The notes beneath the pieces were generated by a model. That model saw nothing but the letters and a program-made list of their open reading frames with translations, ran no database searches and was not told where the DNA came from. Positions 35,488 through 58,099 of a DNA stretch of 64,000 nucleotides are shown piece by piece (positions within the stretch are counted from its first letter, which is position 1; each line of letters begins with the position of its first letter). A program made the translations under genes and the position numbers. Source of the DNA: Bacilli bacterium (GTDB lineage Bacteria; Bacillota_I; Bacilli_A; RF39; UBA660); NCBI GenBank assembly GCA_017442305.1, contig JAFRZY010000001.1:2632-66631 (forward strand). The letters run 5' to 3'.

Positions 35488-36243
35488 ATGAGGAAAATTT
35501 CGAGGATGTTATTAATAATTTTAGCAGTCATTTTTTTACAAATAAATGTTGTATCAGCAGCATCAAAATGTGATTACAATGAACAAGTTGAACTTAATAA
35601 TACTGCTGCTAACATTAAAGTTTCTTATGAAGAAGCAGTTGGTGTAGATAACAGTGATATCGGTCTTGAAAGTGATAGTGGAGAGATGCCAAATAATGAA
35701 TATTTATATTTTAAAGTACAAATATTCAATGTTACTGAAGAAGTATATGTTAAAGTAACAAATTCACAAAATAATGATGTTAAATATTTAAACTATAATG
35801 AAAGTCAAAGTGGCGTATTAACACTTGATTGGAAAGATTTAGATAATGTTGTAGATTTTACCATCACGGTATATACAAGTGCTTCTACAGGGTGTCCTAA
35901 TGAAGAATTAAGAATTATTAATTTAACGTTACCAAGATATAATTGGCTATCTGAAATAGCTAAATGTATCGGCAATGAAGAGTTCTATTATTGTCAAAAA
36001 TATATCTTAAGTAAAGATGATATTAGTGAAAATGAATTTGCGGTCAAATTAGAAGAATATTTAAATAAAAAAAATAAAGATGAAATTCAAAATGAAGAAG
36101 AACATTTAAGTTTTGGAGATAAAATTAATAATTTTATTAAAGAGAATAAAGTTACAATTATTGTAATTTCTACAATTGTCGTTGTTGGTGGGGTTGTTGC
36201 TAGTGTAATAGTGATTAAAAAACGAAGGAGTAGATTAATATGA
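35488..36243 (+). CDS. Secreted, C-terminally membrane-anchored protein
   Basis: 251 aa. Signal peptide ...VVSA/ASK. C-terminal TM plus KKRRSRLI tail without LPXTG. ATGA overlap with the next gene. Confidence 0.6.
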   Translation: MRKISRMLLIILAVIFLQINVVSAASKCDYNEQVELNNTAANIKVSYEEAVGVDNSDIGLESDSGEMPNNEYLYFKVQIFNVTEEVYVKVTNSQNNDVKYLNYNESQSGVLTLDWKDLDNVVDFTITVYTSASTGCPNEELRIINLTLPRYNWLSEIAKCIGNEEFYYCQKYILSKDDISENEFAVKLEEYLNKKNKDEIQNEEEHLSFGDKINNFIKENKVTIIVISTIVVVGGVVASVIVIKKRRSRLI

Positions 36244-39200
36244 AAAAAATCTTAAAAGCTGTATTGGTTGTATTTACTTTTGTTTGCGTTACAAATGTTA
36301 ATGCAGCAAACATTATTGATAAAGGAAAATATGATACTGGTTTAGATTATGGTTTTTCCGGAAAAGGAACTAGTGGTGGCGGTTATGATATGCCAGCAAC
36401 ATTAAGAAAATATATTCTACAAAAAGATGGAAAAGAATATAGTGCATTTTGTATGGACGTTACATACAAGCCAGTAAGTGATAGTCAATCTGTTTCTTGT
36501 ACTAAGATGGCAATAAATTCTGCTTACAATGCAGGTTTGATTGCGATTGGTAAAAATGGTTATAATATAAAAACTCAAACATCAAATACAATTAATGGGA
36601 TTACGGTAAGTGGTGATAATTATTACAGTGCAACAAATATTGCATTACGTTTATATAAAATGGCAATGGGAAATGCCAAGACCGATAACTCTTATGCAAG
36701 TATGTCCGCTGATTATAACTATAGTATGTTAAATACTGCTGTTGATTGGATGTATAGTAATTTTGAGTTATTTAAAAAAGCAACGGGATACACAGGTAAG
36801 AAAGATAAAAGTGAATTGTTTAAATATACTGGGTTATCAGGTACCGCTGCTATAGGTCAAAATACTCAATATGCAAAAACTACGGATCATCATGATAACA
36901 AAATGTCTGATAATTTCTATACTTTAAGAAGTGCTGATAGTTCAGTTTACAAAGCTGCAAAGGAATTATTTAAAATAGGTTTAGAAGAGGCTGCAGCTTA
37001 CAGAAGTAATCCTACAGCGTATAAAGAAAAATATAATGATAATACTGACGGTAAAAAAGCTAGTATTGTAGTTTCTAATATAAATAATAATAGTAATTCA
37101 TCGGTTGCAGGTGGAACATCTTCAAGACAAGATAATAATACTCATTTAGTAAGTTTAGATTATGTTACTATAGAATTAAAAGATTTTACTGCAACCGATA
37201 AAATTAGTGACATTTCAATAAGTTGTATTAATTGTAGTGAAGTTGCAAGAGGTACTGCTTCTGTTGCGATTTCAAGATATTCATTAGACGGAGGAAATAC
37301 TTATATTAATGGTGCTCCAACAAATGATAAATTAAATGGTTTAACTGGTAATAAAAAAATAGTGTTAGAAATCACTACTAAAGTAAAAAAAGATAATCTT
37401 TATAGTTGTGATGATATTAAATTCAAAGTATCTTACAACTCAAATTTAACAAGTTCGACAAACTCATCAGAGGATGATTCGAATATAAAAGGTATTTATA
37501 GTTGTTTAGCAGCTAATAAACCAGGAGATCATCAAGAATTTTATCAAATTGAAGCATGGCCTAATGAATCAGCAACTAATCCTGATGAGAATCCTGGAGG
37601 TACTGATGGTAGTCCTGCATCAGCTTCAAAAGAATTTAAGGTTAATTTCTGTCCGCCTACTGGTTCTTGTATTGCAAAAGATCCTGCTACTATGACTGAT
37701 GAAGAAAAACAAGAATGCTGTGATGAATGGGAAGATGCATGTGTAAACGGTAACAATTATTGTACATATGTTGGAGAATATTGTGTTACATGTGATACTA
37801 AAATTGATCATCCTACAGCTTGTACCGATTTTGATGATGCTGGTGTATCTGAAGGAGAAGTAGTAGAAGCTTTAGATGAAAATGGTAATGATAATACTAA
37901 GCTTTGTCTATTAATGCGAAAAAAAGATGAAGCGGGTAATAGCATCTTAAGCAGTTCAAATAGCTATTGTGAGATATATTGTAAAGAAGAATTTAAATAT
38001 AATCTTCCGGGAGCTGTATCTATAAATAGTGGTACATATTTCCAATTAGAAGCTACAATAACAGGTACTAAGAGTTGTTATACTTCAAAAATAGATACAA
38101 ATAAATTTAAAACGGATTTAGAAGCCCTTAAGGCCGATAAAGATGCTGGTAGAATTTCAGCCGCCGAATATAATACTAAACGTGATGATGTTGTAAAACA
38201 ATATAATTCTTGTGTCAATTTAGATGAAGAATATAGTTGTTTTGAACCAAAGATAAAGTATGAATATGATGAATCTTATGATAACGGAATTAATGAAGGT
38301 AGTAAGGAATTTACTCGTACTAATGTTACAGTATCTAATGACGAAACTGAATATTGTACTGGTGAAGTAAATGATAGTTATGCTTGTCAAGGTTCTAATA
38401 GAAAAGGAACTATAACAATAAATGGTGTAACATATAGTACTGCAGATTATGTAAAGACTACTATTACTAAAACTGCTAATTATAAAACACCATCAGTGTT
38501 CTATACAAAGACTCCGACTGGTGCTATAGTTTCACAAGAAGAGTATGATCGTTTAGCTGAAAGTCAAAAAAATAATTATAATAAAATAGATGGTTTACCT
38601 GTATCAATTAAAACTGAAAGTGGAAATCATAAGTTTACTTTAACATTATCGAATGTTGGAGAATTCTATGCATTAAGTAAACCTGGAGCTTGTGTAACAG
38701 GTAGATTAATCGGTGCAGATAATAGTGTTTTTGATAAAAATAAAAATACAAAAGCAGAGTATGATTGTAAGTACTTTGTAAATTGTCCAGAGTGTGATTT
38801 TGATTGTGTTGGACCTTTATGTAATATTGAAACATGTGATGGACCAAATTGTGTTCCTACATGTATAGGTTATGGATGTGCTTATACTAATGGTGGTTTA
38901 AGCTATGCTTACAGAACTATTTCTTTAGTTAACTTAAATCCAACTAATAGAGAACTAGGTTATAACTGGAATACTAATAGTTCTAAGAATAAAGCTGCTG
39001 CTAAAGCAACTGCAGCAATTACTGAAATTACTGGAGAAAAAGAAGATATTTATGAAGATGAACCAATATATTCATTTAAGATTACGCCAGCTTTACAAAG
39101 AAAAATTAAAGAATATAATAAAACTCAACTTAATAAAGGTGGATTTGCAAATGAATCATTAGTGTGTGAAGATTACACATACAACGGTAAAACTTATGAA

Positions 39201-39374
39201 AATGTTAATTGTAAAAGTACATTTATCGAAGATTTAAATAGTGGAGAATTTGCAAACAATGTTGTTGTTCCTTCTGAAAAGAGTAAACCAACATTTACTA
39301 ACTGGTTTGAAAGTGACTATTGTCAAAATAATGTTTGTACAACAGGAAAAGGAATAGGACCTTCATATAAATAG
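36240..39374 (+). CDS. 1044-aa Cys-rich secreted protein (candidate adhesin / pilus-associated protein or substrate)
   Basis: Signal peptide ...VNA/ANI. Many Cys residues, including CPECDFDCVGPLCNIETCDGPNCVPTCIGYGCAY (38782..38884). No LPXTG and no TM. Confidence 0.55.
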   Translation: MKKILKAVLVVFTFVCVTNVNAANIIDKGKYDTGLDYGFSGKGTSGGGYDMPATLRKYILQKDGKEYSAFCMDVTYKPVSDSQSVSCTKMAINSAYNAGLIAIGKNGYNIKTQTSNTINGITVSGDNYYSATNIALRLYKMAMGNAKTDNSYASMSADYNYSMLNTAVDWMYSNFELFKKATGYTGKKDKSELFKYTGLSGTAAIGQNTQYAKTTDHHDNKMSDNFYTLRSADSSVYKAAKELFKIGLEEAAAYRSNPTAYKEKYNDNTDGKKASIVVSNINNNSNSSVAGGTSSRQDNNTHLVSLDYVTIELKDFTATDKISDISISCINCSEVARGTASVAISRYSLDGGNTYINGAPTNDKLNGLTGNKKIVLEITTKVKKDNLYSCDDIKFKVSYNSNLTSSTNSSEDDSNIKGIYSCLAANKPGDHQEFYQIEAWPNESATNPDENPGGTDGSPASASKEFKVNFCPPTGSCIAKDPATMTDEEKQECCDEWEDACVNGNNYCTYVGEYCVTCDTKIDHPTACTDFDDAGVSEGEVVEALDENGNDNTKLCLLMRKKDEAGNSILSSSNSYCEIYCKEEFKYNLPGAVSINSGTYFQLEATITGTKSCYTSKIDTNKFKTDLEALKADKDAGRISAAEYNTKRDDVVKQYNSCVNLDEEYSCFEPKIKYEYDESYDNGINEGSKEFTRTNVTVSNDETEYCTGEVNDSYACQGSNRKGTITINGVTYSTADYVKTTITKTANYKTPSVFYTKTPTGAIVSQEEYDRLAESQKNNYNKIDGLPVSIKTESGNHKFTLTLSNVGEFYALSKPGACVTGRLIGADNSVFDKNKNTKAEYDCKYFVNCPECDFDCVGPLCNIETCDGPNCVPTCIGYGCAYTNGGLSYAYRTISLVNLNPTNRELGYNWNTNSSKNKAAAKATAAITEITGEKEDIYEDEPIYSFKITPALQRKIKEYNKTQLNKGGFANESLVCEDYTYNGKTYENVNCKSTFIEDLNSGEFANNVVVPSEKSKPTFTNWFESDYCQNNVCTTGKGIGPSYK

Positions 39375-39395
39375 AAGAGGAAAGGATTTGCTTAT

Positions 39396-39815
39396 ATGAA
39401 AGAATCATATTGGGGTTATTGGTTAATAGTTCTTGGTATTTTTGTTATAGTTGTAATGATGTTAATTTCAAATTTAACTTCTACTAATACGCAAGATTAC
39501 TATTTGATAAAAGAAATAACACAAGCTTCTATGTTAGATTCTGTAGATTATGCTTACTATCGTGAGTATGAAGAAGTAAAAATAAATAAAGAAAAGTTTG
39601 TGGAAAGTTTTATAAGAAGATTTACTGATTCAGCAACATTAAGTTCAACTTATGAAGTATCTTTTTATGAAATTTATGAAGCACCCCCAAAAGTAAGTGT
39701 TAAAGTTTCTAGTTCATCTAATACCTTTAATATAGCAGGTGATGCAGAATCATTTGATATTGTTAATAAATTAGATGCAATCCTAGAAATGGGTGTATTA
39801 AAGGTAGATAATTAG
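39396..39815 (+). CDS. Pseudopilin-like protein (paralog of the 44108 and 44603 genes)
   Basis: N-terminus MKESYWGYWLIVLGIFVIVVMMLIS matches the MKE[AS]..G + hydrophobic helix pattern of the downstream pilin and pseudopilin genes. Confidence 0.45.
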   Translation: MKESYWGYWLIVLGIFVIVVMMLISNLTSTNTQDYYLIKEITQASMLDSVDYAYYREYEEVKINKEKFVESFIRRFTDSATLSSTYEVSFYEIYEAPPKVSVKVSSSSNTFNIAGDAESFDIVNKLDAILEMGVLKVDN

Positions 39816-39825
39816 GAGGAATAAA

Positions 39826-40632
39826 ATGGGTAATTTAATGACAAATTTAAAAAAATTTATTAGTAATAAAAATACTGTTACTATATTAGGTGTAATATTA
39901 GGGGTAGTAGTTTTATATATCGGATATAATTATCGTGTAAAACAAGCTATAGAATTAGTTTCTATTCCTTATGCTACTCAAGCTATTGCTGGTAAGACTA
40001 AAATTACATCTGAAATGATTAGTACCGTTGAAGTAAATAGATCATTTTTAAGAAATAATCCTAATGTTATTACAGATATTAATAAATTAATAGATCAATA
40101 TGTTAATTATGGTATGCCTGTACCAAATGGAGCTTTCTTCTATACTGATCAAGTTGTAGCAGAAAAACAATTAAATGATTCAGCATTTAATGATATACCA
40201 GATGGCTATACAATATTTACTTTAAAGGTTGATTTACATACAACTTATGGTAATTCTATATACCCTGGTAATTATATAGATTTATATTTAAAAGCAATTG
40301 ATGATACTAATAGATTAATATATGGACAATTTATTACAAGTATCGAAGTATTGGCAGTTAAAGATAGTGCTGGAAATCATGTGTTTGAAGGTGCTTCAAC
40401 TGGTACTCCTGCAGAACTTTTATTTGCAGTACCAGACGAAATGTATAAATTGTTAATGAAAGCAGACTTATTAACATCAAATTCTATTGAAATAATCCCT
40501 GTACCTAGAAATGCTAGTTATACTTCTAATAAAGGAGAAACTAGTGTAACAAGTGAATATTTAAAGAATTTTATCTTATCTAAATCTGCGACAATCCCTG
40601 ATGAATTTGTAAATAATACAGTAACTGAATAA
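39826..40632 (+). CDS. cpaB: CpaB/RcpC-like pilus assembly protein (SAF domain)
   Basis: 268 aa. N-terminal TM, then VSIPYATQAIAGKTKITSEMIS, a SAF-like beta-clip. Position immediately upstream of the CpaF-like ATPase. Confidence 0.6.
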   Translation: MGNLMTNLKKFISNKNTVTILGVILGVVVLYIGYNYRVKQAIELVSIPYATQAIAGKTKITSEMISTVEVNRSFLRNNPNVITDINKLIDQYVNYGMPVPNGAFFYTDQVVAEKQLNDSAFNDIPDGYTIFTLKVDLHTTYGNSIYPGNYIDLYLKAIDDTNRLIYGQFITSIEVLAVKDSAGNHVFEGASTGTPAELLFAVPDEMYKLLMKADLLTSNSIEIIPVPRNASYTSNKGETSVTSEYLKNFILSKSATIPDEFVNNTVTE

Positions 40633-40646
40633 AAAAGAGTAAAGAG

Positions 40647-41768
40647 GTGAGATTTGTGAATGATGCTATATTTTCACAAATAGACTTTGGACCAATTAAA
40701 GAATTTTTAGAACAAGACAATATAACCGATATTTCCTACAGTAATGGTGGTCAAATATGGTTAAAGTCTTTGGATAAAGGTGTTTATAAAGTTGAGCGTC
40801 CAGAAATAAATAATGCGTTAATCGAAAAATTAGCTTTTCAATGTTCTAATGTAATGGGTAAGACATTTAATATGGCTCATCCATTCTTAGATGCTGAAAG
40901 TGCAGAATTACGTTTAAATTTTATTCATGACTCCATTGCAACCAATGGAGTAGCTCTAGTTATACGTAAAACTCCGGCTAAAATAAGATTAAATAAAGAA
41001 AAATTATTAAATGAAAAGTATGTTACTGAAGAACTTTTGAATTTCTTATTACTATGTGTTCGTGCTCATTGCAACATAATTGTAAGTGGTGAAACTGGTT
41101 CCGGTAAAACAGAATTAGTAAAATACCTAGCTAGTCATACACTAGAAAACGAAAAAATTATTACTATTGAAGATACCTTAGAGTTACATTTAGATAGAAT
41201 TTTTCCGCATCGTGATATTGTAGCTATGAAGACAAATAATATTGCTGATTATTCTGATGTGTTAGTAACATGTATGCGTCAAAATCCACGTTGGATTTTA
41301 CTTTCGGAAGTTCGTAGTGCAGAAGCAGTTATGGCTGTAAGAAACTCAATTTCTTCAGGGCATAATATTATTTCAACAATTCACTCTGATAGTGCTGCTA
41401 ATATACCAATGCGTATGTATAGTTTGCTTGAATCGAATTTAGACATTGACCAATTCTTAAAATCAATTCATCGTTATGTACAATTAGGAATTCATGTAAA
41501 AGGTTATATGAGTAAAGAATTAGGTCGATTCCAAAGAGAGATTGTCGAAGTGACAGAATTTTATGTTGATGAAGAAAATAAAGCTGGTCATAATACAATA
41601 TTTAAAAAAGGCTTAGATGGAAAAATATGTTTTAAAAATCCATCTAAATATATTAGAAATTATATGGGGGCTCAAGGAGTAGATGTTCCTGAAATAGTAT
41701 TTAAGGAAACTATTAGTGCAGAGGATAATACTACGTCAGATTATATAAATGAAATAGAAACTTTATAA
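40647..41768 (+). CDS. tadA: CpaF/TadA-family secretion ATPase
   Basis: Walker A SGETGSGKTE, IEDTLEL (Asp box), MRQNPRWILLSEVRSAEA, His box GHNIISTIHSDSA. An alternative GTG start at 40656 is better spaced from SD agaggtga. Confidence 0.85.
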   Translation: MRFVNDAIFSQIDFGPIKEFLEQDNITDISYSNGGQIWLKSLDKGVYKVERPEINNALIEKLAFQCSNVMGKTFNMAHPFLDAESAELRLNFIHDSIATNGVALVIRKTPAKIRLNKEKLLNEKYVTEELLNFLLLCVRAHCNIIVSGETGSGKTELVKYLASHTLENEKIITIEDTLELHLDRIFPHRDIVAMKTNNIADYSDVLVTCMRQNPRWILLSEVRSAEAVMAVRNSISSGHNIISTIHSDSAANIPMRMYSLLESNLDIDQFLKSIHRYVQLGIHVKGYMSKELGRFQREIVEVTEFYVDEENKAGHNTIFKKGLDGKICFKNPSKYIRNYMGAQGVDVPEIVFKETISAEDNTTSDYINEIETL

Positions 41769-41781
41769 AAGGAGGATATTT

Positions 41782-42675
41782 GTGGAACTTATTATATTAT
41801 TAGCTATAACAATATTTGTCATTACTTATAGAAAAAACACTGGCGAAAATGTTTATAAATTTTTTGTTTCGCAAGTGTCTAATATGTATGAAAAATATGC
41901 TCCTTATAGTTTTAAAACAGTTAGAGAAAAAACTAAAGAATTAGGACAAGAATACACTACTAAACAATATACTATTCAAGTTGTTTTATTTGCTGCTATA
42001 GGTGGCGGTATTGCTTATATGTATTTTTATAGTATTATATGGGCTTTAATATATGCATGCATTGCAGTTGCATTTATCCCATATCTAGCGTATTTAAGAT
42101 GCCAAAGAGTTTATAGTGAATATATATTTGAACAAATTCAGGTATATACAACAAATGTAATAATGGAATTTAATACAACTCAAAGTTTTGTTAAGTCTTT
42201 AGAGGGAGTTAGAGATTCAGGAATTTTAGAAAATCCTGTATTAGATGATGTAAAAACTATGATTGAGATGTCATATCAAAATGGTACGATAGATGAATCC
42301 ATTGAATTTTTCAATAGTAAGTACCCTTATTATATGGTAAAAAATATGCATCAATTATTTTTACAAATCACTAAAGAAGGTGCAAGAGATTCAGGAGAGT
42401 CTTTAGAAAACATGTCAATGGATATCGACGCTTTGGTTGAAGGTGTATATCGTGATCAAATGGATCGTAAAAATTTCCATAAAAGATTTATTACTTTTGG
42501 TCTTGTATTATTCTTCTTAGTAATGGTTATGCAATTTTTACTTGGAAGAGAAAGTTATATTGAATTACTAGACTTATGGTATGTAAAAATTATATTGCAT
42601 GCAATAATTATTATAAATAGTTATTTCCTTATCACTGGTGAAAAATATTATAATGAAGATGTGGGGGGAGAATAA
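41782..42675 (+). CDS. tadB: TadB-like T2SS-F-family platform protein
   Basis: 297 aa. N-terminal TMs, ~130-aa cytoplasmic helical domain, C-terminal TM pair. Follows the ATPase gene. Confidence 0.6.
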   Translation: MELIILLAITIFVITYRKNTGENVYKFFVSQVSNMYEKYAPYSFKTVREKTKELGQEYTTKQYTIQVVLFAAIGGGIAYMYFYSIIWALIYACIAVAFIPYLAYLRCQRVYSEYIFEQIQVYTTNVIMEFNTTQSFVKSLEGVRDSGILENPVLDDVKTMIEMSYQNGTIDESIEFFNSKYPYYMVKNMHQLFLQITKEGARDSGESLENMSMDIDALVEGVYRDQMDRKNFHKRFITFGLVLFFLVMVMQFLLGRESYIELLDLWYVKIILHAIIIINSYFLITGEKYYNEDVGGE

Positions 42676-43463
42676 TGTATTTAGAAATTATTATTATTGG
42701 TATTATTGTTATTTTCTTAATGGTTTATACTGGGCGAATTAATTCTAATAAGTTTTTTTCAGATAATGAAGTATATTTAAGAAAATTAAAAGAAGAAGAT
42801 TGGGATTTCTATGTAAAAGCTAAATATGGTGATAATGTTAATTCTGATATTCTATTTAATAGAAGAATCCGTAATGGAGTGATGATAGCCGCGTTAGTAC
42901 TATGTTTAATGCTTGGTAATTTAAGTTATATTACTTTTCTATTTGCTATTATTGTAGGTTTCTTCACTTTTAAATTAGATTATATTAATATTAAAAGTTA
43001 TTATAAGAAACATCTACATCAAATAGATGCTATGCTACCGCATTATTTAAAAAGTATAGAAATTTTAATACAACACTATACAGTACCGGTAGCTATTGGT
43101 AAATCAATGAATGATGCTCCAGCAATATTTAAAGATGGACTTCAAGAATTAATAAATGAAATTAATGCTGGTAATGATACTATTGAACCTTATATGAATT
43201 TTGCTAAAACATATCCGGTAAGAGATTCAATGCGTATGATGCGTTTATTATATCGTTTGAGTTTAGGACGCCAAGAAAGAAAGCAAGAACAATTACTAGC
43301 TTTTTCAAGATCAATTTCAAATTTGCAACAAAAAGCTAGGGAAACCAAATATAAAGAAAGACTTGAAAAAATGGAAAGTAAGACCATGGCAATGTTGATA
43401 ACTACCGGTTTAGGGGTTATGATATTACTTATCTTAGCTGTTCTATTAATAATGAATGTTTAA
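42675..43463 (+). CDS. tadC: TadC-like T2SS-F-family platform protein
   Basis: 262 aa with the same topology class. TAATG overlap with the TadB-like gene. Confidence 0.6.
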   Translation: MYLEIIIIGIIVIFLMVYTGRINSNKFFSDNEVYLRKLKEEDWDFYVKAKYGDNVNSDILFNRRIRNGVMIAALVLCLMLGNLSYITFLFAIIVGFFTFKLDYINIKSYYKKHLHQIDAMLPHYLKSIEILIQHYTVPVAIGKSMNDAPAIFKDGLQELINEINAGNDTIEPYMNFAKTYPVRDSMRMMRLLYRLSLGRQERKQEQLLAFSRSISNLQQKARETKYKERLEKMESKTMAMLITTGLGVMILLILAVLLIMNV

Positions 43464-43512: not shown

Positions 43513-43541
43513 TTGATAAAAATATAAAAAAAAGTTATAAT
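43513..43541 (+). promoter_or_regulatory. Near-consensus SigA promoter of the pilin operon
   Basis: TTGATA (43513..43518), 17-nt spacer, TATAAT (43536..43541). Confidence 0.55.
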
Positions 43542-43572: not shown

Positions 43573-43836
43573 ATGAAGGAAGCAACTGGAGAATTAAATA
43601 TGACAGTTATAACAGTAGTGGCTATTGCAGCAGTAGGAGCATTCTTTTACGCATTTGTATGGCCTGCTATAAAAGGAAATATTACTAGCTCTACTAGATG
43701 TGCTAATGCTGTATGTACAAGTTGTTCTACTGCTAATGGAAGAAGAAGTTGTACTGGATGTTCGTTTGATACAAATGGAGATGGAGTAGTTTCAGGTACT
43801 GATGAAACTGGTTTTTCTTGCACATATAACGATTAA
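43573..43836 (+). CDS. Small pilin-like protein 1 (Cys-rich head)
   Basis: 87 aa. MKEATGELNMTVITVVAIAAVGAFFYAFVW, then a 6-Cys C-terminal domain. SD aaaggagg. Confidence 0.6.
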   Translation: MKEATGELNMTVITVVAIAAVGAFFYAFVWPAIKGNITSSTRCANAVCTSCSTANGRRSCTGCSFDTNGDGVVSGTDETGFSCTYND

Positions 43837-43849
43837 TTAGGTGATATAA

Positions 43850-44593: not shown

Positions 44594-44602
44594 GGTGAAT
44601 AT

Positions 44603-50157: not shown

Positions 50158-50460
50158 ATGAAAATGTATTTAATACCTGCCAATTCTAAGAAGTCTCAAT
50201 TGATTTTGGGCTTCTTTACCCCATTTGATTTAGTGGTATTTGGAATTGGAGCAATTATAACAATTATTTTGTTGTTGGTAATAAGAAGTTCAGATTTAAC
50301 TGTAATGATATTGATACTTTTACCGTTATTAATATCTACTTTGTTAGTTATGCCTGTTGTTTATTATCACAATGTAATGCAATTGTTAACAAATATAATT
50401 ATGTTTTTTATAAATAGACGAAGGTATTATTGGAAAGGCTGGTGTATTAATGAAGAATAG
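50158..50460 (+). CDS. VirB3/PrgI/TcpE-like small 2-TM protein
   Basis: 100 aa. Two TM helices. Immediately precedes and overlaps the VirB4 N-terminal-domain ORF. Confidence 0.5.
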   Translation: MKMYLIPANSKKSQLILGFFTPFDLVVFGIGAIITIILLLVIRSSDLTVMILILLPLLISTLLVMPVVYYHNVMQLLTNIIMFFINRRRYYWKGWCINEE

Positions 50461-51001
50461 TAAGGAAAGTTCTTTTACAGAAGATTGGTTACCTGTAAAA
50501 CAAATAATAAACGGGATGATTTTGACAGATGATGGTTATTATGTAACGGGGATTAAAGTTGCGCCTAAAAACATCTTCATTATGGATAGTGTTGCGCAAG
50601 ATGCAATTGTTAATAATTTAACAAATGTTTATAACATGTTAGATTTTGAATTTTGGTTGATGATTGCAGATAGACCTGTAGATTTAAGTGTTTATTTAGC
50701 GCAAATGCAAATGTTATATAATGATTCTAGTGATGCTTTAGAAAGAAAGCTAATTATGCAAGATATTAATAAAGCTAATATGTTTATGAGTAGTGAATAT
50801 AATGTTGTTGATACTGAATATTATATCTTGTTTAAAGAAAAGAAAATGGAATTAGTCCAAAAGAAACTACATAATTTAATTAGTGGTTTTGCAAGTTGTG
50901 GTTTAAATTCAACACAAACTTCAAATTCAGATTTAAGAATGATATTAGATAATTTCTTAAATGGTGGGGTTAGTACTACAGTTGGGACGGTGATGCCATA
51001 A
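50450..51001 (+). CDS. VirB4 N-terminal domain encoded as a separate ORF
   Basis: 183 aa. EDWLPVKQIINGMILTDDGYYVTGIKVAPKNIF resembles the N-termini of Gram-positive VirB4/TraE/Orf16-type ATPases. The stop overlaps the next ATG (TAATG at 50999..51003). Confidence 0.5.
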   Translation: MKNSKESSFTEDWLPVKQIINGMILTDDGYYVTGIKVAPKNIFIMDSVAQDAIVNNLTNVYNMLDFEFWLMIADRPVDLSVYLAQMQMLYNDSSDALERKLIMQDINKANMFMSSEYNVVDTEYYILFKEKKMELVQKKLHNLISGFASCGLNSTQTSNSDLRMILDNFLNGGVSTTVGTVMP

Positions 51002-52785
51002 TGGCCTTAAAGAGTGAAGTAGCACCTAAAGGTATGCAATTTAATGCAACAGATTTCATAATAAGTGGAAAATATTCTACAATTATGACAATTGTAACTT
51101 ATCCAAAAAATATTTATCCGGGTTATTTATCTGATTTAACAAGTTTAAGTGGTGTTAAAGTTGTTGTTAAACATATTCCTATTCCATTTAGTACTTTACA
51201 AAAAATGCTAAATAAAGAAATTGCTGATTTAAAAGCGCGTTATCAAACAGAAAAGGATTTAACATTTCAAGAAAAAATTCGTCAAGATTATGAATCCTTA
51301 GAACAGTTTATTTCAATGCTTGCTGCAACACAAGCAAGAATTTATGATTTTCAATTACATATAATGATTTCTGGGGATAATAAAGAAGAATTAGAAATGC
51401 GTAAGATGCAAGTTCGTAGCCATTTAGAAGCTATGGGTATGCGGGGAGTGTCATTAATGTTTGAACAGGAGAAAGTGTTAAAATCAATTCTACCGATTTT
51501 CCCTAAACAAGATATTGAAGATAGAATTGGTACTCCGGTTCCATCCGTTACAGTATCAGCGATGTATCCATTTGTGTTTGATAGTGTAAAAGATCCAGGT
51601 AATTCTATGTTATTTGGTGTGGATTTTTCCGGTGGAGTTGTATTATTTAATCAATTCTTATATCAATTAAAAAAAGAGCATAATAGAAATAATGCTAATA
51701 TGATTCTTTTAGGTACTTCTGGTACTGGTAAATCTACAGCAGCAAAATTATTAATTAGAAGTCATTTAAGAAATGGTTATAAAGTTGTATGTATTGACCC
51801 AGAAGGTGAACTTGGTGAAATGGTTAATAATATGGGCGGTAATTTCTTAGATTTAGGAAAAGGTGGAGAATATGGTATGATTAATCCACTTGAAGTAATT
51901 GTTGATGCTGATGAAGAGGAAATTGCTCAAGGTTTAGGTTATACAATTCTTACTCGTACGTTACAACAGTTAAAAGCATTTTTGAAATACTATTCACCTA
52001 GTATTGAGGAAGATGTACTTACAATGTTTAGTGAAGTAGTTCAAGATACTTATAAACGTTATAAAATAGATTTTGATACAGATTTTACAAAATTTACAAG
52101 TGCTGATTTTCCAACATTTGATGATGTTTATGCAACAATTAAAGGAAGATTGCTTTCAATGGTTGATGCAACTCACGAAAGAGATGTAATGGAAAGATTA
52201 GAATTAAAAATCAGACCACTAGTTAAAGAATTACGTTATTACTTTACAGGTCATACAACATTAGATATTGATAGTGATTTTATTGTGTTTAATATCAGAG
52301 AATTAATGAATAGCGATGAAAACATTAAAAATGCATTGTTCTTTAATATATTAAAATATGCATGGGGTGAATGTTTAGATAAATCTGTTAATACAGTAAT
52401 GATGGTTGATGAAGCGCATGTACTTCTATCTAGTCATAATGAATTAGGTGCGGAATTCTTAGCCCAAATTCAAAGACGTAGTAGAAAATATAATACTGGT
52501 ACAATCATAATTACTCAACAACCTACAGATTTTGCTGCTCCAAATATAATTACTCATGGTAAAGCAATATTTGATAATGCTGCTTATTATCTAGTAATGG
52601 GATTAAAAAAACAAGCTGTAGAAGACTTGTCTAAATTAATAGATTTAAATGAATCTGAAAAAGAAGGTATTAAATATTATAATCAAGGTGAAGCATTGTT
52701 TATTTGCGGAAGCCGTAGAATGAGAATAAATATAGTAGCCACTCAAGAAGAATTAGATTCTTTTGGTACAGGTGGTGGATTATAA
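51001..52785 (+). CDS. virB4: VirB4-family T4SS ATPase (C-terminal 594 aa)
   Basis: Walker A LLGTSGTGKST, Walker B VMMVDEAHVLL, downstream IIITQQP. The N-terminal part YSTIMTIVTYPKNIYPGYLSDL is typical of VirB4. Confidence 0.85.
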   Translation: MALKSEVAPKGMQFNATDFIISGKYSTIMTIVTYPKNIYPGYLSDLTSLSGVKVVVKHIPIPFSTLQKMLNKEIADLKARYQTEKDLTFQEKIRQDYESLEQFISMLAATQARIYDFQLHIMISGDNKEELEMRKMQVRSHLEAMGMRGVSLMFEQEKVLKSILPIFPKQDIEDRIGTPVPSVTVSAMYPFVFDSVKDPGNSMLFGVDFSGGVVLFNQFLYQLKKEHNRNNANMILLGTSGTGKSTAAKLLIRSHLRNGYKVVCIDPEGELGEMVNNMGGNFLDLGKGGEYGMINPLEVIVDADEEEIAQGLGYTILTRTLQQLKAFLKYYSPSIEEDVLTMFSEVVQDTYKRYKIDFDTDFTKFTSADFPTFDDVYATIKGRLLSMVDATHERDVMERLELKIRPLVKELRYYFTGHTTLDIDSDFIVFNIRELMNSDENIKNALFFNILKYAWGECLDKSVNTVMMVDEAHVLLSSHNELGAEFLAQIQRRSRKYNTGTIIITQQPTDFAAPNIITHGKAIFDNAAYYLVMGLKKQAVEDLSKLIDLNESEKEGIKYYNQGEALFICGSRRMRINIVATQEELDSFGTGGGL

Positions 52786-52786
52786 G

Positions 52787-52816: not shown

Positions 52817-52857
52817 GTGATATAATTTTTACAGAATTATAAATAGTGGTGATAATT

Positions 52858-54981
52858 ATGTATAGACCAAATAATAAATTTAAAAATAATAGTGCTTATC
52901 GCAATAATTTAGATGCATTAGAAGAGAGGAAAAATTATAGAAGAAATCAATTAATGCAACAACAATATTATGAACAAGCCGATGATGAAGAAGATGAAAA
53001 TATTGAGAATGAAGATGTTAATAATACACAAGATTTAGAAAATACTGAGAAACCAGTTAATGGGTCTTCTAAACCGCAAAATAGTTCTATACAACCTAAA
53101 CGAAATAGTATTGGGAATCGCGGCTTAAAACTTCCCGGTTTAAAAAGTAGGAAACCTACACAAGCCATTGCTAAAGGCGTAAAAAATATAAAAGGGATTG
53201 GTGTTTTTCTAGGAAAATACAAGATTGTTATCTTAATTGGTGCAATTTTCATATTTATGTTTTTTTTGTTAATTTTAATGTCATTAGATATGTTTGGTGA
53301 TTCAAGTGACACTTCTGGTGTAGGAGGTAAGAATCAAGGGTATTTTGATTTAGCGTGTAACTTTAATAAAACTGTTGTAAATTATAAAGATGAAAATAGT
53401 AATCATGAAAATATAAGTTTAGAAGATTTTATTATAGGAACTACATATGCTTATGTTCAAGATAAGAGCTATTCAGATACTGTTTTAAAATCTTTAATTA
53501 TAATTTTAAAAACCAACGCATTAAGTCAGGGAAATTATAGTAATTTACTTCAAAAATTAACATTAGATAATTTTGAAAAAGGTTATATATCGCAAGATAA
53601 TATGACTAATCAATCACTAAAAAATCAGATTACTAATATATATAATTCTACAGCTGATGAAATATATGTTTCGGAGTCATATAAAGGTACAATTAAAAGT
53701 TTAAATTCATCTGATATTTTGAATTTATCTGATGAGGTTATCCAAAAAATCGTAAACCTTGCATCAAACAAGAATTATGAGCAAATATTAAATGAATTAT
53801 ATAATTCCAATGCTGAAAACAAAAAGTTATATAAAATAGCAGATAATTGTACATATTATTCATTAACTGAAAATGATGCTTTTTGGTGGCCAATTGGTGG
53901 CGGTGTCGATACTGGTGATAATATTTATAGTGGTCAGCCTACAGCTACTTATATTTCTTCAAATTATGGTTTAAGAGTAATTGATGGAAAAAGATCATAT
54001 CATCAAGGGATAGATATAGCTGCTTCTTGTCAAAGTAATGTTGTTATAGCGGTTAAAGCCGGAAAAGTAAAAAAAAGCTATAATGGGTGTGATAATAATG
54101 GTTATTATCAGAGTAAATGTGGTGGAGGTTACGGAAATTACATTTATATTGAGCATGAAGATGGGACAATGAGTCGTTATGCTCATTTGTATCCAGATTC
54201 TATAACCTTAAAAAGTGGTGATACAGTCAAACAAGGTGAAAAAATAGGTTTGATGGGTAATTCTGGTTCATCTACTGGTTGTCATTTGCATTTTGAAATT
54301 TTAATTAATGGTTCTAATGTGGATCCTTTAAATCATGTAAGTGCAACTAATCCAAGACCACAAAGTCATCAAAGTTCTTTAATAGTTAATGATAACGTGG
54401 CCAATGCTGAAGAAACCAAAAGAGAGATATGTAGATCTTTAAAAAATGGTGGCTATTCTGATGATGCAGTAGCAGGAATGTTAGTAAATATTGAGGCCGA
54501 AGGAAGCTTTAAATTAAATAATCTTGAGGGTTGTTATGAGAAAGATAATTGTTGTTATGATGGTACATATGGTTATTGTAAACATCCTGAAATAGGTGAT
54601 TTTGGTTCTGATGAAGCTTATACTAATGGTGTTGATTCTGGGGCTTATCCTAAATCCAAATTTGTTAATGATAGAGCGGGGTATGGGTTAATTCAATGGA
54701 CATCATCAGGAAGAAAATCTAATTTATATGACACTGCAAAAAAAGTTGATAAATCTATAGCGTCTTTAAGTGTTCAGTTAGGATATTTACTAACGGAAAT
54801 AAAGAGTGGTGCTTATTCTATAACTAATAAATATGTTACGGGTAATTATTCAGCTTATGAAATAGCAAACAATTTTTGTTTAGATTTTGAAAGACCAAAA
54901 GATAAAGAAAATACTTGTCCTACAAGGGCTTCAAATAGGGCTTCTGTTATGTTGGACTATGTACAAAATAATTGTAGTTAG
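52858..54981 (+). CDS. Multidomain cell-wall hydrolase (SpoIID-like region + M23 peptidase + phage-tail-lysozyme-like domain)
   Basis: Start trimmed to ATG 52858. TM at ~aa 120. ISLEDFIIGTTYAYV...LKSLIIILKTNAL (SpoIID-like). M23 motifs HQGIDIA and GNSGSSTGCHLHFEI. C-terminal GMLVNIEAEGSF...GYGLIQWTSSGR. Confidence 0.75.
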   Translation: MYRPNNKFKNNSAYRNNLDALEERKNYRRNQLMQQQYYEQADDEEDENIENEDVNNTQDLENTEKPVNGSSKPQNSSIQPKRNSIGNRGLKLPGLKSRKPTQAIAKGVKNIKGIGVFLGKYKIVILIGAIFIFMFFLLILMSLDMFGDSSDTSGVGGKNQGYFDLACNFNKTVVNYKDENSNHENISLEDFIIGTTYAYVQDKSYSDTVLKSLIIILKTNALSQGNYSNLLQKLTLDNFEKGYISQDNMTNQSLKNQITNIYNSTADEIYVSESYKGTIKSLNSSDILNLSDEVIQKIVNLASNKNYEQILNELYNSNAENKKLYKIADNCTYYSLTENDAFWWPIGGGVDTGDNIYSGQPTATYISSNYGLRVIDGKRSYHQGIDIAASCQSNVVIAVKAGKVKKSYNGCDNNGYYQSKCGGGYGNYIYIEHEDGTMSRYAHLYPDSITLKSGDTVKQGEKIGLMGNSGSSTGCHLHFEILINGSNVDPLNHVSATNPRPQSHQSSLIVNDNVANAEETKREICRSLKNGGYSDDAVAGMLVNIEAEGSFKLNNLEGCYEKDNCCYDGTYGYCKHPEIGDFGSDEAYTNGVDSGAYPKSKFVNDRAGYGLIQWTSSGRKSNLYDTAKKVDKSIASLSVQLGYLLTEIKSGAYSITNKYVTGNYSAYEIANNFCLDFERPKDKENTCPTRASNRASVMLDYVQNNCS

Positions 54982-54990
54982 GAGAATTTT

Positions 54991-55758
54991 ATGCAAAAAA
55001 ACAAAAAAATAATTTTAGGGATATTACTATTAATATTTTTTCTTATAGTTGTTATAGCTGTAGTTTTAGGAAATAAAACTGGTAATAATGAAAATCCTAA
55101 TACTGGGATTGAAACAGAAGAAAAAGATAGAATGGAATTAGTAGATGATTATGAAGAATTTTTTTCTGTTCAAGCTACTATAAACGATATTGATAACGTT
55201 GAAATGGACTCATCTTATGTTGCAAAAGAAATTTATATACATTCTATTTCTAAAACTAGATATTATTTTATAAGGTGTATCAAAATGTCTGAATTTGATG
55301 ATTCAACTGATGTTTATTTATTATTAATTGTGGATGGTAAAAATAATTCTTATGAGTTAGAAGAAATAAAAGAACATATTGATGATTTACAAAAGTATGC
55401 TGCAGATTATAATGTTGTTATTAAAAATATAAATTCTTCAAATATATTACTAAGTGGTAGTAGTGAACCGAAAAATGTTTTAACAAGTTATTTAGAATTT
55501 TTTAAAAAATTATTAATTAAAGATTCATATGCTGCTTATAATATGCTACACACTGATACAAAAAGTAAATATATTGATTACAATGATTTTGATGCGAATG
55601 TAGTAAATATTTATCAAAAGCTATCATCTGGTATTTTTTCATATAGCGTTAAAGATAGCAATGATAGTGAAATAAAGACTTATTATTTCGAAGATGATAA
55701 TCGTAACAAAATTGTAATTTATGAAGAAAGTATAATGAATTTTAAAATTTCTTTTTAA
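54991..55758 (+). CDS. Bitopic protein in VirB8/TcpC position
   Basis: 255 aa. One N-terminal TM, then a ~220-aa extracytoplasmic alpha/beta region. Assignment is by position and topology only. Confidence 0.3.
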   Translation: MQKNKKIILGILLLIFFLIVVIAVVLGNKTGNNENPNTGIETEEKDRMELVDDYEEFFSVQATINDIDNVEMDSSYVAKEIYIHSISKTRYYFIRCIKMSEFDDSTDVYLLLIVDGKNNSYELEEIKEHIDDLQKYAADYNVVIKNINSSNILLSGSSEPKNVLTSYLEFFKKLLIKDSYAAYNMLHTDTKSKYIDYNDFDANVVNIYQKLSSGIFSYSVKDSNDSEIKTYYFEDDNRNKIVIYEESIMNFKISF

Positions 55759-55846
55759 TCTACAAATCAATTAAAGTAAAGATAATACTCTTTGCTTTTC
55801 TTTATATTTTATAGTATAATATTTTTGTTAAACTGGAGGAATCAAA

Positions 55847-58099
55847 ATGAAATTTAAGGTTGAACCAAAAGATTTTTTCTTATTTTGTTTGTATTGTATT
55901 TTATTGTTATATTTATGTTGTATTGCAGTCTTAAATTTTGCATCATTATCAAATGATGGTACATTTTATGGTTTGATTCCATTCAAGGCTTTTACTATGC
56001 CTTATTTACCAGTAACTTTGGGAATGTTTTTTGTCGCGTTAATAATAATTTTTACTAGTGTTTCTTCTTATATTTTTAATAAAGAAAAAGGTTCAGGTAT
56101 GGGACTTTCTTTTGGCGGAAAAAAAGAAAGTGGATACTCTAGATGGGCAAAAGATAAAGAAATAAAAAATGGTACAGATGTGGTAAAAGTAAATATTAGT
56201 GATCCAGTAGCTAAAGCGGCTGGTATACCACTTATTAATAATGGTAAAGAAGTATGGGTGGATAATGGTGAATACCATAGTTTAGTAATAGGTTCTACTG
56301 GTTCAGGTAAATCTCAAACAGTTGTTAATCCATTAGTAAATTTACTTGCCAAAAAGGGCGAAAGTATGATTATTACTGACCCTAAAGGTGAGTTATATAG
56401 ATATTGTAGTGGAGCACTAAAAAAACGTGGTTATAAAATAGTATTACTTAATTTTCGTGAGCCATTAAATGGCAATGCATGGAATCCTCTTAATTTACCT
56501 TATCAATATTATAAAAAAGGTAATACAGACAAAGCAACTGAATTATTAGATGACGTTGCACTAAATATTTTATATGATCCAAGTAGTGGTAAAGATTCTG
56601 ACTTCTGGGAAAAAAGTGCTGCTGACTATTTTTCAGGTTTAGCATTAGGTTTATTCATGGATGCTCAAGAAAAAGAAGTTAATTTAAATAGTATTAATTT
56701 AATGAGTACTGTTGGTGAAGAAAGATACGCTACTAGTAATTATGTTAAAGAATACTTTGGTTTAAAAGGAGAGCAATCTAACGCTTATGTATTTGCATCT
56801 AATACTATAAACGCTCCAGCAGAAACTAAGGGTGGTATATTATCAACATTTAGACAAAAGATAAGATTATTTTCATCTCGTGAAGAATTAAGCGAAATGT
56901 TATCATATAGTGATTTTGATATGAGAGCGGTAGGTAAGGAAAAGACTGCTGTATTCTTGATAATTCATGATGAAAAGAAAACATATCATAGTTTACTTAC
57001 AATTTTTATTAAGCAAATATATGAAACATTAATTGATGTAGCCCAAGAAAACGGTGGTAAGTTACAATATCGTACAAACTTTATTTTAGATGAGTTTGCT
57101 AATATGCCACCTCTTAAAGATGTTGATTCAATGGTATCGGCAGCTCGTAGCCGTGATATTAGATTTACTTTTATCATTCAAAACTTTGCGCAATTAAATG
57201 ATGTATATGGCAAAGAGGTTGCAGAAATTATTAAAGGTAACTGTGGTAATATAATTTACTTAATTAGTACCGAAATTGCGGCATTAGAAGAAATTAGTAA
57301 GATGTGTGGAGAGGTTAAATCAAGCGAAAAAGATAAAACGGCATCAACACCATTAGTTACCGTTACAGATTTACAAAAAATGAAATTGTTTGAAGTTATT
57401 ATTAAAAGGCTTAGAACGGATCCTTTTAAAACACAATTTGTTCCAGATTTTAAAATAGACTGGGGACTTGAAAAAGCACCTGCAGAGTTTCCAAAAAGAG
57501 AAAGACAAGAAATTCAACTTTTCGATTTAAAACAATATGTTACAGAAGAAAAGAAGAAAAGAATGATGGAAAATTTTGAAAAAAACAAAGATAATAATAT
57601 TGGATTAAATCCTGGTATGCCAAATCCATTTGGTATGGGAGGTGGAATGAATTCTCCATTCGGAGGTCCTTCACCATTTGGAGGAAATAATCCATTTGAA
57701 AATCAAGTACCAAATCCGTTTAATTCTGGGCCGATGCCAAATCCACTTGGTGGTAGTCCATTAAATAATATGGATATCGATGCCATGATGAAGGATATTG
57801 ACCGTAAGTTAAAAGAATTAGATGAAGAAGAAGCTAAACAAAAAGAATTGTTAGAGAAGAATAATGTAGATAAAGAAAACAAACAAGTTAATAAAGTTTT
57901 TGATATTTTTGCAGAAGATAATGTAGTATCGCCTGAAGCAAAAATAGAAGAACCAATAAAAGAAGAAGTTAAAGAAAATATATCTGTTAAACAAAGTGAT
58001 AGTAAACCAATAATTAATATTGATGCTGATAGTATTATTGTAAATGAAAATGTAATTACAGATGATGAATTTTTTGACGATTTCTTTGGAGATGAATAA
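55847..58099 (+). CDS. virD4: VirD4/TraG-family type IV coupling protein
   Basis: 750 aa. Two N-terminal TMs. Walker A VIGSTGSGKSQ, Walker B FILDEFANMP, FTFIIQNFAQL. NPF/PFG-repeat and acidic C-terminal tail. Confidence 0.85.
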   Translation: MKFKVEPKDFFLFCLYCILLLYLCCIAVLNFASLSNDGTFYGLIPFKAFTMPYLPVTLGMFFVALIIIFTSVSSYIFNKEKGSGMGLSFGGKKESGYSRWAKDKEIKNGTDVVKVNISDPVAKAAGIPLINNGKEVWVDNGEYHSLVIGSTGSGKSQTVVNPLVNLLAKKGESMIITDPKGELYRYCSGALKKRGYKIVLLNFREPLNGNAWNPLNLPYQYYKKGNTDKATELLDDVALNILYDPSSGKDSDFWEKSAADYFSGLALGLFMDAQEKEVNLNSINLMSTVGEERYATSNYVKEYFGLKGEQSNAYVFASNTINAPAETKGGILSTFRQKIRLFSSREELSEMLSYSDFDMRAVGKEKTAVFLIIHDEKKTYHSLLTIFIKQIYETLIDVAQENGGKLQYRTNFILDEFANMPPLKDVDSMVSAARSRDIRFTFIIQNFAQLNDVYGKEVAEIIKGNCGNIIYLISTEIAALEEISKMCGEVKSSEKDKTASTPLVTVTDLQKMKLFEVIIKRLRTDPFKTQFVPDFKIDWGLEKAPAEFPKRERQEIQLFDLKQYVTEEKKKRMMENFEKNKDNNIGLNPGMPNPFGMGGGMNSPFGGPSPFGGNNPFENQVPNPFNSGPMPNPLGGSPLNNMDIDAMMKDIDRKLKELDEEEAKQKELLEKNNVDKENKQVNKVFDIFAEDNVVSPEAKIEEPIKEEVKENISVKQSDSKPIINIDADSIIVNENVITDDEFFDDFFGDE

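Follow-up and report, generated by a model that had tools for sequence, protein, structure and literature searches.

In a 64-kb window (64,000 nucleotides) of a Bacilli bacterium genome (contig JAFRZY010000001.1), positions 35488–58099 are occupied by 21 open reading frames (ORFs; g01–g21), all on the + strand and either overlapping or separated by gaps of 0–112 bp. Two modules stand side by side in this array: a pilus-like module that runs from Cys-rich surface proteins to g12, and a type IV secretion system (T4SS) module that runs from VirB2-like hairpin proteins to a VirD4 coupling protein. Coordinates are given in window numbering throughout, and one outlying gene further downstream is referred to as h372. 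We consider it fairly probable that the cluster descends, by vertical inheritance in the chromosome, from the conjugation apparatus found on plasmids of the pLS20 and pBMB67/pAW63 types, and that, with its DNA-processing genes lost, it now works for the cell. What appears to be new is the setting, i.e. lineage-wide chromosomal fixation in uncultured gut Bacilli. The uninterrupted same-strand array reported in a preliminary description of this DNA is borne out, with no − strand gene between 35488 and 58099; the 23 proteins counted there become 21 on recounting.

Relatives of the cluster are widespread. Scanning one genome per species with the ATPase encoded by g05 gave at least 545 species genomes with confirmed relatives. 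Records of the best ATPase relatives are labelled as uncultured Bacilli, Tenericutes or Mycoplasma, Clostridium sp. CAG:609 or Ca. Onthocola (the last placed by NCBI taxonomy in Bacilli incertae sedis), and their lineage is presumably the GTDB order RF39. For comparison, we used the 80 loci of the best 80 ATPase relatives (76–85% identical) and 83 loci found with VirB4; related loci reach 10 kb on either side of the marker gene, and identities are medians to the window. The 80 loci keep the order g01–g13, and at least 51 of them also share the left flank (a metallophosphoesterase gene, usually a CAAX protease gene, then genes for a CotZ-like protein and FtsW). Among the encoded proteins, the ATPase has the highest median identity (81%), followed by the polytopic membrane proteins g06 and g07 (75% and 68%), the DUF5411 protein (g03, 63%), g12 (60%), the CpaB-like protein (g04, 48%) and the pilin-like proteins (39–47%), with only 32% and 29% for the secreted proteins g01 and g02. 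The flanking metallophosphoesterase, CAAX protease and FtsW have median identities of 43%, 39% and 49%, respectively. The motor and membrane core is constrained more strongly than its housekeeping neighbours, and the surface proteins evolve fast.

The T4SS half gives a similar picture. Homologues of VirB4 (g18) number more than 7000; among the best 120, identity is at least 81% throughout and length is 593–595 residues. In the 83 VirB4 loci, the order VirB2-like/Cys-rich array, VirB6, VirB3, VirB4-N (a separate N-terminal part of VirB4), VirB4, wall hydrolase, ∼250-residue protein and VirD4 is kept, with median identities of 79% (VirB4), 66% (VirB4-N), 64% (VirD4), 55% (VirB3) and 32% (VirB6). 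VirD4 is detected in 47 of the 83, which are the loci with sequence reaching that far; most loci reaching there have a rhodanese gene after VirD4, often with RmuC next and sometimes BacA. Hundreds of species have these genes in one and the same chromosomal context, at a conservation above that of housekeeping neighbours, and this strongly supports the suggestion in the preliminary description that the machine has been domesticated.

Homologues of both modules are also present on conjugative plasmids. The plasmids pBMB67 and pLS20 were reached by tblastn of VirB4 and the ATPase against plasmids, and were compared with the window using profile hidden Markov models built from the window families and their relatives. 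In pBMB67, these profiles match for g03 (E = 3.5e-6, at 30236–30664), the SAF-domain protein g04 (9e-39), g05 (4e-40), g06 (4e-11), g07 (1.7e-8), the PrgI-like protein g16 (4e-5), g17 (VirB4-N, 3e-22), g18 (9e-82) and VirD4 (g21, 7e-68). In pLS20, g03 corresponds to gene 36 (6.7e-6) and g05 to gene 37 ('tadA', 34% identical), and VirB4 and VirD4 are matched as well. The weak best plasmid matches of g10 and g11 are their positional counterparts, i.e. a DUF4320 protein of pBMB67 and gene 40 of pLS20 (E = 0.07), and the same holds for g12 and VirB6, the latter matching p028 of pLS20. In addition, the 76-residue product of pLS20 gene 45 (L001, 14035–14265) scores 32.1 bits with the T4SS_pilin model, above the threshold of 26.6 bits. 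The earlier claim that this architecture is undescribed for Bacillota is thus wrong at the gene level, because pBMB67 and pLS20 carry homologues of both modules.

These conjugation operons were published with the ATPase named VirB11 and its neighbours as unknown (PMC1196294, PMC8557374). In the pLS20 paper, genes 36 and 38–47 are unknown and no pilus homologues are present (PMC8557374), and published plasmid descriptions state that pilus homologues are absent (PMC8557374, PMC1196294, PMC9673590). A 2025 review describes Gram-positive T4SSs as universally without VirB11 and, Patescibacteria aside, without VirB2 (PMC12857230). The pLS20 paper, too, says that VirB2 homologues are missing from Gram-positive conjugation systems. 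Contrary to such reviews, the pLS20/pBMB67-type systems and their chromosomal derivative carry VirB11- and VirB2-type genes. Searches of the literature for 'Tad-like' together with conjugation in Firmicutes found nothing, those for RF39 with T4SS, pili or conjugation found nothing relevant, and the pilus reading that the preliminary description gave to these genes is absent from the literature searched.

We also compared the gene organization of the window with those of the two plasmids. The tra genes of pBMB67, a conjugative plasmid of Bacillus thuringiensis, are in the order published for pAW63/pXO2/pBT9727. Like the window, pBMB67 has a large surface protein ahead of the ATPase module (PMC1196294), a DUF5411-like protein, a SAF/CpaB protein, a T2SSE ATPase, two polytopic proteins, a CD1115-family VirD4, PrgI/VirB3, a separate VirB4-N ORF and VirB4, with protein identities of ∼28–34%. 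Unlike the window, it has a MobP3 relaxase, partition and replication genes, insertion sequence/intron insertions, a ParA-like ATPase that separates the SAF protein from the T2SSE ATPase, and another module order. By contrast, the window is chromosomal, has no detected relaxase and has an expanded array of Cys-rich VirB2-like fusion proteins. Genes 34–54 of pLS20 (Bacillus subtilis natto) likewise comprise an adhesin, the DUF5411-like 36, the 'VirB11' 37, the membrane proteins 38 and 39 and small membrane proteins, and then the T4SS_pilin gene 45, VirD4, an extended VirB6, VirB3, VirB4-N and VirB4 (PMC8557374). pLS20 differs from the window in that it is self-transmissible with a MobP2 relaxase, its adhesin is a thioester protein and no CpaB-like protein was detected in it by the window-family profile.

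No mobility genes accompany the cluster in the DNA that we searched. The family scan covered nearly all window ORFs of at least 90 residues and several shorter ones, using Pfam for all and NCBIfam for 20. It detected no relaxase, integrase, transposase or Rep families, and a tblastn search with MobP2 and MobP3 relaxases against 87 related loci (1.7 Mb) gave no match. The 64-kb window contains no tRNA gene, and the longest direct repeat at the boundaries is a 29-nt AT-rich, chance-like match with nothing att-like about it. These scans agree with the preliminary description, which had noted that relaxase, integrase, Rep, tRNA and repeats are all missing from the window. Plasmid and phage collections held no near-identical DNA, and the GC content and composition of the array are the same as those of its flanks. 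The left flank codes for LeuRS, ThrRS, TyrRS, FtsW, a metallophosphoesterase and a CAAX protease, and the right flank for rhodanese, RmuC, BacA and TrpRS. The earlier statement that both flanks are housekeeping needs a correction on the right, as the Cys-rich secreted protein h372 (59644–60762) lies beyond rhodanese and RmuC.

The linkage between the two modules varies among relatives. The T4SS directly follows the pilus-like module in 12 of 49 scorable species loci, while the other 37 run into unrelated genes (e.g. UvrA), usually after one or two VirB2-like genes. Conversely, 47 T4SS loci have full upstream sequence, and pilus genes lie upstream in 23 of them and not in 24 (e.g. glycosyltransferases in L087). 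In a tree built from the ATPase, g06 and g07, loci with contiguous halves turn up on scattered deep branches, and the separated halves each retain their own outer flank. In L085 (12013–17000), a truncated module stands between both outer flanks, and g07 leads straight to rhodanese–RmuC–BacA. Pairwise distances of g12 and VirB4 give a Spearman coefficient of 0.69, which is descriptive only. Independent occurrence of the halves in relatives, which the preliminary description had named as evidence against its reading, is thus partly seen. Even so, plasmids and more than one deep clade have the two modules side by side, which argues that this adjacency is ancestral rather than accidental. Judging from these gene orders, the fusion is probably ancestral and not obligatory. 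The simplest reading is one ancestral contiguous locus that was inherited vertically and underwent several splits and partial losses, and we infer that the breakpoints lie in the paralogous VirB2-like array.

How such a chromosomal descendant of a conjugation apparatus might work can be proposed from its parts. The VirB11/CpaF-class ATPase, the two polytopic proteins and the CpaB-like protein are seen together as a gene set and would act together; a short fibre would be assembled from the five pilin-like proteins, and the fast-evolving Cys-rich surface proteins would be adhesins. The hydrolase would open the wall, and VirB6, VirB3 and VirB4, whose genes are all present, would form a channel decorated by the array of VirB2-like hairpins. 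VirD4 would pick cytoplasmic cargo, which would be delivered to the contacted cell. We favour a role in contact-dependent exchange that would aid the growth of auxotrophs on or beside partner cells, as in Patescibacteria. Given the conservation and the auxotrophies of RF39 (PMC12306168), a growth-linked contact function is somewhat more likely than occasional DNA exchange, and relaxase-independent or distal-relaxase DNA exchange is next most likely. That VirD4 is conserved and linked speaks more for export than for uptake alone. It is possible, though not probable, that RF39-like Bacilli are obligately contact-dependent, as epibionts or tight partners, with the fibre-plus-T4SS as an essential organelle of attachment and exchange.

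Several points count against descent with a cellular role as outlined above. The T4SS is not beside the pilus-like module in about three-quarters of species loci, so that each module may function by itself. As the search covered ∼64 kb and the loci of relatives, a relaxase or rolling-circle initiator may lie elsewhere in the genome. The function proposed for the cluster is read from its genes, the RF39 assignment is presumptive, and the argument from auxotrophy draws on one sentence of PMC12306168. Neither the platform-protein hallmark of type IV filaments nor a prepilin peptidase was found in the window (nor, for the hallmark domain T2SSF, in orthologues), which makes fibre assembly a conjecture.

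Four other explanations can be weighed. Two independent neighbours, i.e. a T4SS and, separate from it, an adhesive pilus of a distinct kind, would account for the 37 of 49 pilus-like loci that are not followed by a T4SS and for the 24 of 47 T4SS loci with other upstream genes. However, pLS20 and pBMB67 have both modules in one conjugation region, several deep clades include loci in which the halves are contiguous, and the distances of g12 vary together with those of VirB4. VirB2-like genes also flank the breakpoint on both sides, which suggests that a single ancestral locus was split; we therefore regard independence as unlikely. If the cluster were instead a self-mobile, ordinary integrative and conjugative element (ICE) with relaxase, integrase and att sites just outside the window, it would be natural that all structural conjugation genes are intact, VirD4 included, and that the nearest characterised relatives are self-transmissible plasmids. 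Such an element is very improbable, given the same housekeeping flanks on both sides in many species, the lack of any relaxase, integrase, tRNA or repeat in 64 kb and of a relaxase in 87 related loci, the conservation above housekeeping neighbours and a composition like that of the flanks.

The two remaining explanations concern DNA as the cargo. In one, the T4SS and VirD4 export chromosomal DNA by means of an unrecognised or distal nickase, comparable to chromosomal transfer in Mycoplasma or DNA secretion in Neisseria. It is possible, though not probable: it agrees with descent from a conjugation system, with a VirD4 that has kept its TraG-D_C domain (64% identity in loci reaching VirD4), with the best scores of VirB4 and VirB6 being to Mycoplasma ICE families, and with the presence of RmuC, a DNA recombination protein, downstream of VirD4–rhodanese in many loci. 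On the other hand, the RmuC linkage may be mere conserved gene order, neither Pfam nor NCBIfam relaxase families were found among the scanned window ORFs and neither MobP2 nor MobP3 in related loci, and the pilus-like module, with its extreme conservation and seeming universality, looks tied to growth more than to occasional gene exchange. In the other, quite unlikely explanation, the cluster is a DNA-uptake (competence) organelle in which DNA caught by the fibre enters through a VirB4/VirB6 channel, on the model of Helicobacter ComB or archaeal Ced. An auxotrophic lineage with reduced genomes (PMC12306168) would fit uptake, and there are precedents in Tad pili (PMC8513845) and T4SS-like import (PMC9905601). 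VirB4 also resembles CedD weakly (1.9e-10), but VirD4 is conserved and linked here and no ComEA-/ComEC-like gene occurs at the locus. Known import systems are without a VirD4 coupling protein. Moreover, ComEC-dependent competence in Saccharibacteria is separable from T4SS essentiality (PMC12857230).

We then consider the genes of the pilus-like module. The first, g01 (35488–36243, +), encodes a secreted protein of 251 residues with a signal peptide and a C-terminal transmembrane (TM) anchor, which has no family match in Pfam or NCBIfam and is found at the same position in 67–68 of the 80 related loci. It is followed by g02 (36240–39374, +), which encodes a Cys-rich secreted protein of 1044 residues, also without a Pfam or NCBIfam match. 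From its position, g02 is probably a surface adhesin: it stands where pLS20 has the thioester adhesin Tie and where pBMB67/pAW63 have large surface proteins (PMC8557374, PMC1196294). In one related locus (L172, 1714–2154), a PedC-like/thioredoxin gene that is absent from the window lies between the CAAX protease and the first cluster gene; it could be a disulphide-forming helper for the Cys-rich secreted proteins.

Next are g03 (39396–39815, +), a DUF5411 protein (Pfam 1e-57) whose pilin-like N-terminus consists of MKESYWG and then a hydrophobic helix, and g04 (39826–40632, +), a CpaB/RcpC-like SAF-domain protein. The assignment of g04 in the preliminary description is sub-threshold in the window (RcpC 6.8e-5 and TIGR03177 5.7e-8, both under the cut-off) and robust across orthologues, with the RcpC domain found in 18 of about 20. 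The secretion ATPase g05 (40647–41768, +; true start probably 40656) is of the VirB11/CpaF class. Its earlier assignment to the CpaF/TadA class is confirmed at the level of the T2SSE family (Pfam 2.5e-29), though the VirB11 (4e-33, 115 bits) and TrbB (1e-26, 94 bits) models of NCBIfam score comparably to the TadA-conjugal model (4e-29, 102 bits), all under their cut-offs.

The polytopic membrane proteins g06 (41782–42675, +) and g07 (42675–43463, +) occupy the TadB and TadC positions and have no family assigned. The homology to TadB/TadC proposed earlier is not supported beyond size and topology, since no test gave a T2SSF signal: Pfam detected no T2SSF domain in the window proteins, in ∼30 orthologues and four plasmid homologues, or in remote homologues, which came from a profile search of 1.84 billion representatives (302 matches, mostly fragments of the same family). 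Profile alignment (hhalign) against Rhizobium TadB and TadC gave E-values of 0.12 and 0.5, a profile search of the PDB with g06 was empty, and Foldseek with a mediocre AlphaFold model of g06 (predicted local distance difference test, pLDDT, of 66) returned nothing at E ≤ 0.001.

Five proteins of the module share an M-K/R-E-A/S-x-G-type start followed by a hydrophobic helix; their genes start at 39396 (g03), 43573, 43850, 44108 and 44603. Among them, g08 and g09 (43573–44092, +; starts 43573 and 43850) are small Cys-containing pilin-like proteins of 87 and 80 residues without a Pfam family match. The N-terminus of g08 (MKEATGELNMTV) leads into the hydrophobic helix, and its E3, A4, G6, E7, L8 and T11 are invariant in 73 orthologues. 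The minor-pilin-like proteins g10 and g11 (44108–45079, +; starts 44108 and 44603; 161 and 158 residues) begin with M-K/R-E-A/S-x-G and continue into the hydrophobic helix. Since this leader is common to the major and several minor subunits, the group looks like a pilin/pseudopilin set. Of the small pilins and pseudopilins noted in the preliminary description, the pilin-like N-termini stand, whereas a Flp motif and Flp/TadE Pfam matches are lacking: none of the pilin-like proteins has the G/XXXXEY processing motif or an EY, the motif here being MKEATG-ELN. No prepilin peptidase (TadV, A24) occurs among the window ORFs scanned.

The last gene of the module, g12 (45091–46089, +), encodes a cytoplasmic protein of 332 residues. 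The earlier TadZ/CpaE assignment is weak, with a low similarity to the ParA-like ATPase of pBMB67 (hhalign E = 0.0024, in the P-loop region only; hmmsearch 0.005). A CbiA match occurs in one of 14 orthologues, the Walker A lysine is absent, hhalign against Rhizobium TadZ gives E = 0.19 and a profile search of the PDB gave no match; a single-sequence AlphaFold model is unusable (pLDDT 32.5). By these similarities, g12 is possibly a degenerate ParA/MinD-like (TadZ-like) protein. Taken together, the 'Tad' label for the module is partly justified by sequence; it is too specific and holds loosely. Four loci (L065, L084, L067 and L068) keep g01–g07 and one VirB2-like gene and are missing the pilin-like genes and g12, and in L086 the pilin genes are separated from g07 by a 4-kb insertion.

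The two modules meet at the VirB2-like hairpin proteins. The first, g13 (46151–46531, +), is a two-helix hairpin with a sub-threshold match to T4SS_pilin (PF18895, 3e-4). The same family is found at E < 0.01 in 11 of 21 g13 orthologues, and the orthologue in L171 scores 31.8 bits against the cut-off of 26.6. One or two g13-type copies close the pilus-like module, even where no T4SS lies downstream. The following gene, g14 (46643–47866, +), encodes a secreted Cys-rich protein with a C-terminal hairpin that is 35% identical to g13, and belongs to a variable array whose genes differ in number and size between related loci. The outlier h372 (59644–60762, +), beyond rhodanese and RmuC, has a signal peptide, a Cys-rich domain and a C-terminal VirB2-like hairpin that is 48% identical to g13 (T4SS_pilin 0.002). 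A 114-nt DNA repeat (46205–46318 and 60391–60504) is 72% identical between the two places, and relatives of the N-terminal domain of h372 sit within the array in other loci. h372 belongs to the system. Divergent VirB2-like (PF18895) sequences in the window are thus g13, the C-terminus of g14, the N-terminus of g15 and h372.

The T4SS module unites VirB4, VirD4, VirB6, VirB3 and a wall hydrolase in a single cluster. Pfam and NCBIfam profiles confirm the earlier assignments of VirB4, VirD4 and the M23+lysozyme hydrolase; those of the VirB2-like, VirB6-like and VirB3-like proteins are supported at sub-threshold level (3e-4 for g13 as above; 4e-4/4e-5; 0.012). The extended VirB6-like channel protein g15 (47891–50137, +; 748 residues) is polytopic and matches TrbL_4 (4e-4) and the NCBIfam models Mbov_0396 and MMCAP2_0566 (∼4e-5), with a T4SS_pilin-like hairpin near its N-terminus (residues 46–110, E = 7e-5). 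Its C-terminal extension of ∼330 residues is rich in Gly, Ala and Lys, and GC content rises to 0.34 there. The VirB3-like (PrgI) protein g16 (50158–50460, +; 100 residues, 2 TM helices; PrgI 0.012) is followed by g17 (50450–51001, +; 183 residues), the N-terminal part of VirB4, and by the VirB4 ATPase g18 itself (51001–52785, +; 594 residues; P-loop_TraG/AAA_10). All three are collinear with Mbov_0397, an 894-residue model of a fused mycoplasma VirB3–VirB4: g16 covers model positions 2–96, g17 97–276 (8e-16) and g18 295–891 (7e-107; 358 bits, family cut-off 590). This collinearity and the same split in pBMB67 and pLS20 indicate that the division of VirB4 into two ORFs is natural and that no pseudogene is involved.

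Downstream of VirB4, g19 (52846–54981, +) encodes a membrane-anchored wall hydrolase, the VirB1 analogue, with M23 and Phage_lysozyme2 domains (Pfam 7.5e-26 and 3.1e-22). Its catalytic domains are swapped in relatives, which have M23+lysozyme, SpoIID or SpoIID+CHAP. A bitopic or lipoprotein-like protein of 255 residues (g20, 54991–55758, +) is next, and 45 of 47 loci have a protein of 230–323 residues between the hydrolase and VirD4. The consensus of its positional orthologues contains a lipobox-like LxGC. g20 is possibly a VirB8 analogue; it has no Pfam match, and a PDB search with a profile built from 24 positional orthologues gave no match. The array ends with the VirD4 coupling protein g21 (55847–58099, +; T4SS-DNA_transf 1.3e-57, TraG-D_C 1.4e-23), which scores 289 bits with the NCBIfam CD1115 family (cut-off 250). 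The last ∼190 residues of VirD4 (57500–58099) contain an NPF/Gly-rich low-complexity stretch and an acidic tail (DDEFFDDFFGDE), and this region may be a docking site for cargo or an adaptor.

Regulatory signals and neighbouring genes add a few observations. A promoter scan gave nothing above the shuffled expectation, a promoter-like site at 43513–43541 (5′ of g08) being not significant alone, and a terminator scan found no intergenic terminators. Upstream of the cluster, a Cys-rich protein at 33349–33822 is CotZ-like (spore coat protein Z, Pfam 4e-13) and is 76% identical across 10 related loci, compared with 49% for the neighbouring FtsW; this conservation is odd in a reduced-genome lineage that is not known to sporulate. 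A CAAX/Rce1-like intramembrane protease gene (34691–35425, − strand) divergently adjoins the cluster, as it does in 35–36 of the 80 loci. It is unlikely to encode a dedicated pilin peptidase because the CAG:609-like clade has no such gene at this place. Further upstream, two large ORFs (8655–10190 and 10538–14308; 511 and 1256 residues) without a Pfam match adjoin glycosyltransferase and GtrA genes.

RF39-like Bacilli are widespread, uncultured members of animal and human gut communities with small genomes and many auxotrophies, and the cluster, present in at least 545 species, is a testable candidate for the basis of their dependence on other cells or of gene exchange. Should the epibiont reading be true, a Gram-positive conjugation system would have been domesticated independently for a second time, as a parallel to the case of Patescibacteria, and a VirB11-class ATPase with pilin-like and VirB2-like proteins would build an extracellular fibre in a walled monoderm. 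The presence of VirB11, VirB2-like and pilin-like genes also makes it worth asking again whether fibres are built by some monoderm T4SSs.

Three other known systems share features with the cluster. The Tad/Flp pilus (type IVc) also has a CpaB-like protein, a CpaF/TadA-class ATPase with two polytopic proteins of ∼260–300 residues right after it, small pilin-like and minor-pilin-like proteins and, possibly, a ParA-like protein as a counterpart; the window differs from it in having no T2SSF domain, no G/XXXXEY motif and no TadV peptidase at the locus. The T4SS of Mycoplasma ICEs provides the best NCBIfam matches for VirB4 and VirB6, and its fused protein is collinear with VirB3/VirB4-N/VirB4, with a match that stays below the cut-off (VirB4 358 bits vs 590). 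Mycoplasma ICEs are mobile, use a DDE transposase, and have no wall hydrolase and no ATPase/pilin module.

The T4SS of Patescibacteria (e.g. Southlakia epibionticum) resembles the cluster in that it is a monoderm, MPF_FATA-related system that is chromosomal, lineage-wide and relaxase-less, with arrays of divergent VirB2-like (PF18895) proteins near virB4 in reduced genomes (PMC12102498, PMC12857230). In Patescibacteria, which are another phylum, virB4 seldom has VirD4 nearby and VirD4 is dispensable, in contrast to the linked and conserved VirD4 of this cluster; no VirB11/CpaF module has been reported for them, and their type IV pili are encoded separately. Their T4SS is essential by transposon sequencing (Tn-seq), in Saccharibacteria for epibiotic growth (PMC12102498, PMC12857230). 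By analogy, the Patescibacteria T4SS may be regarded as the closest parallel to, and conceptual precedent for, a conjugation apparatus that has been fixed in the chromosome of a whole lineage.

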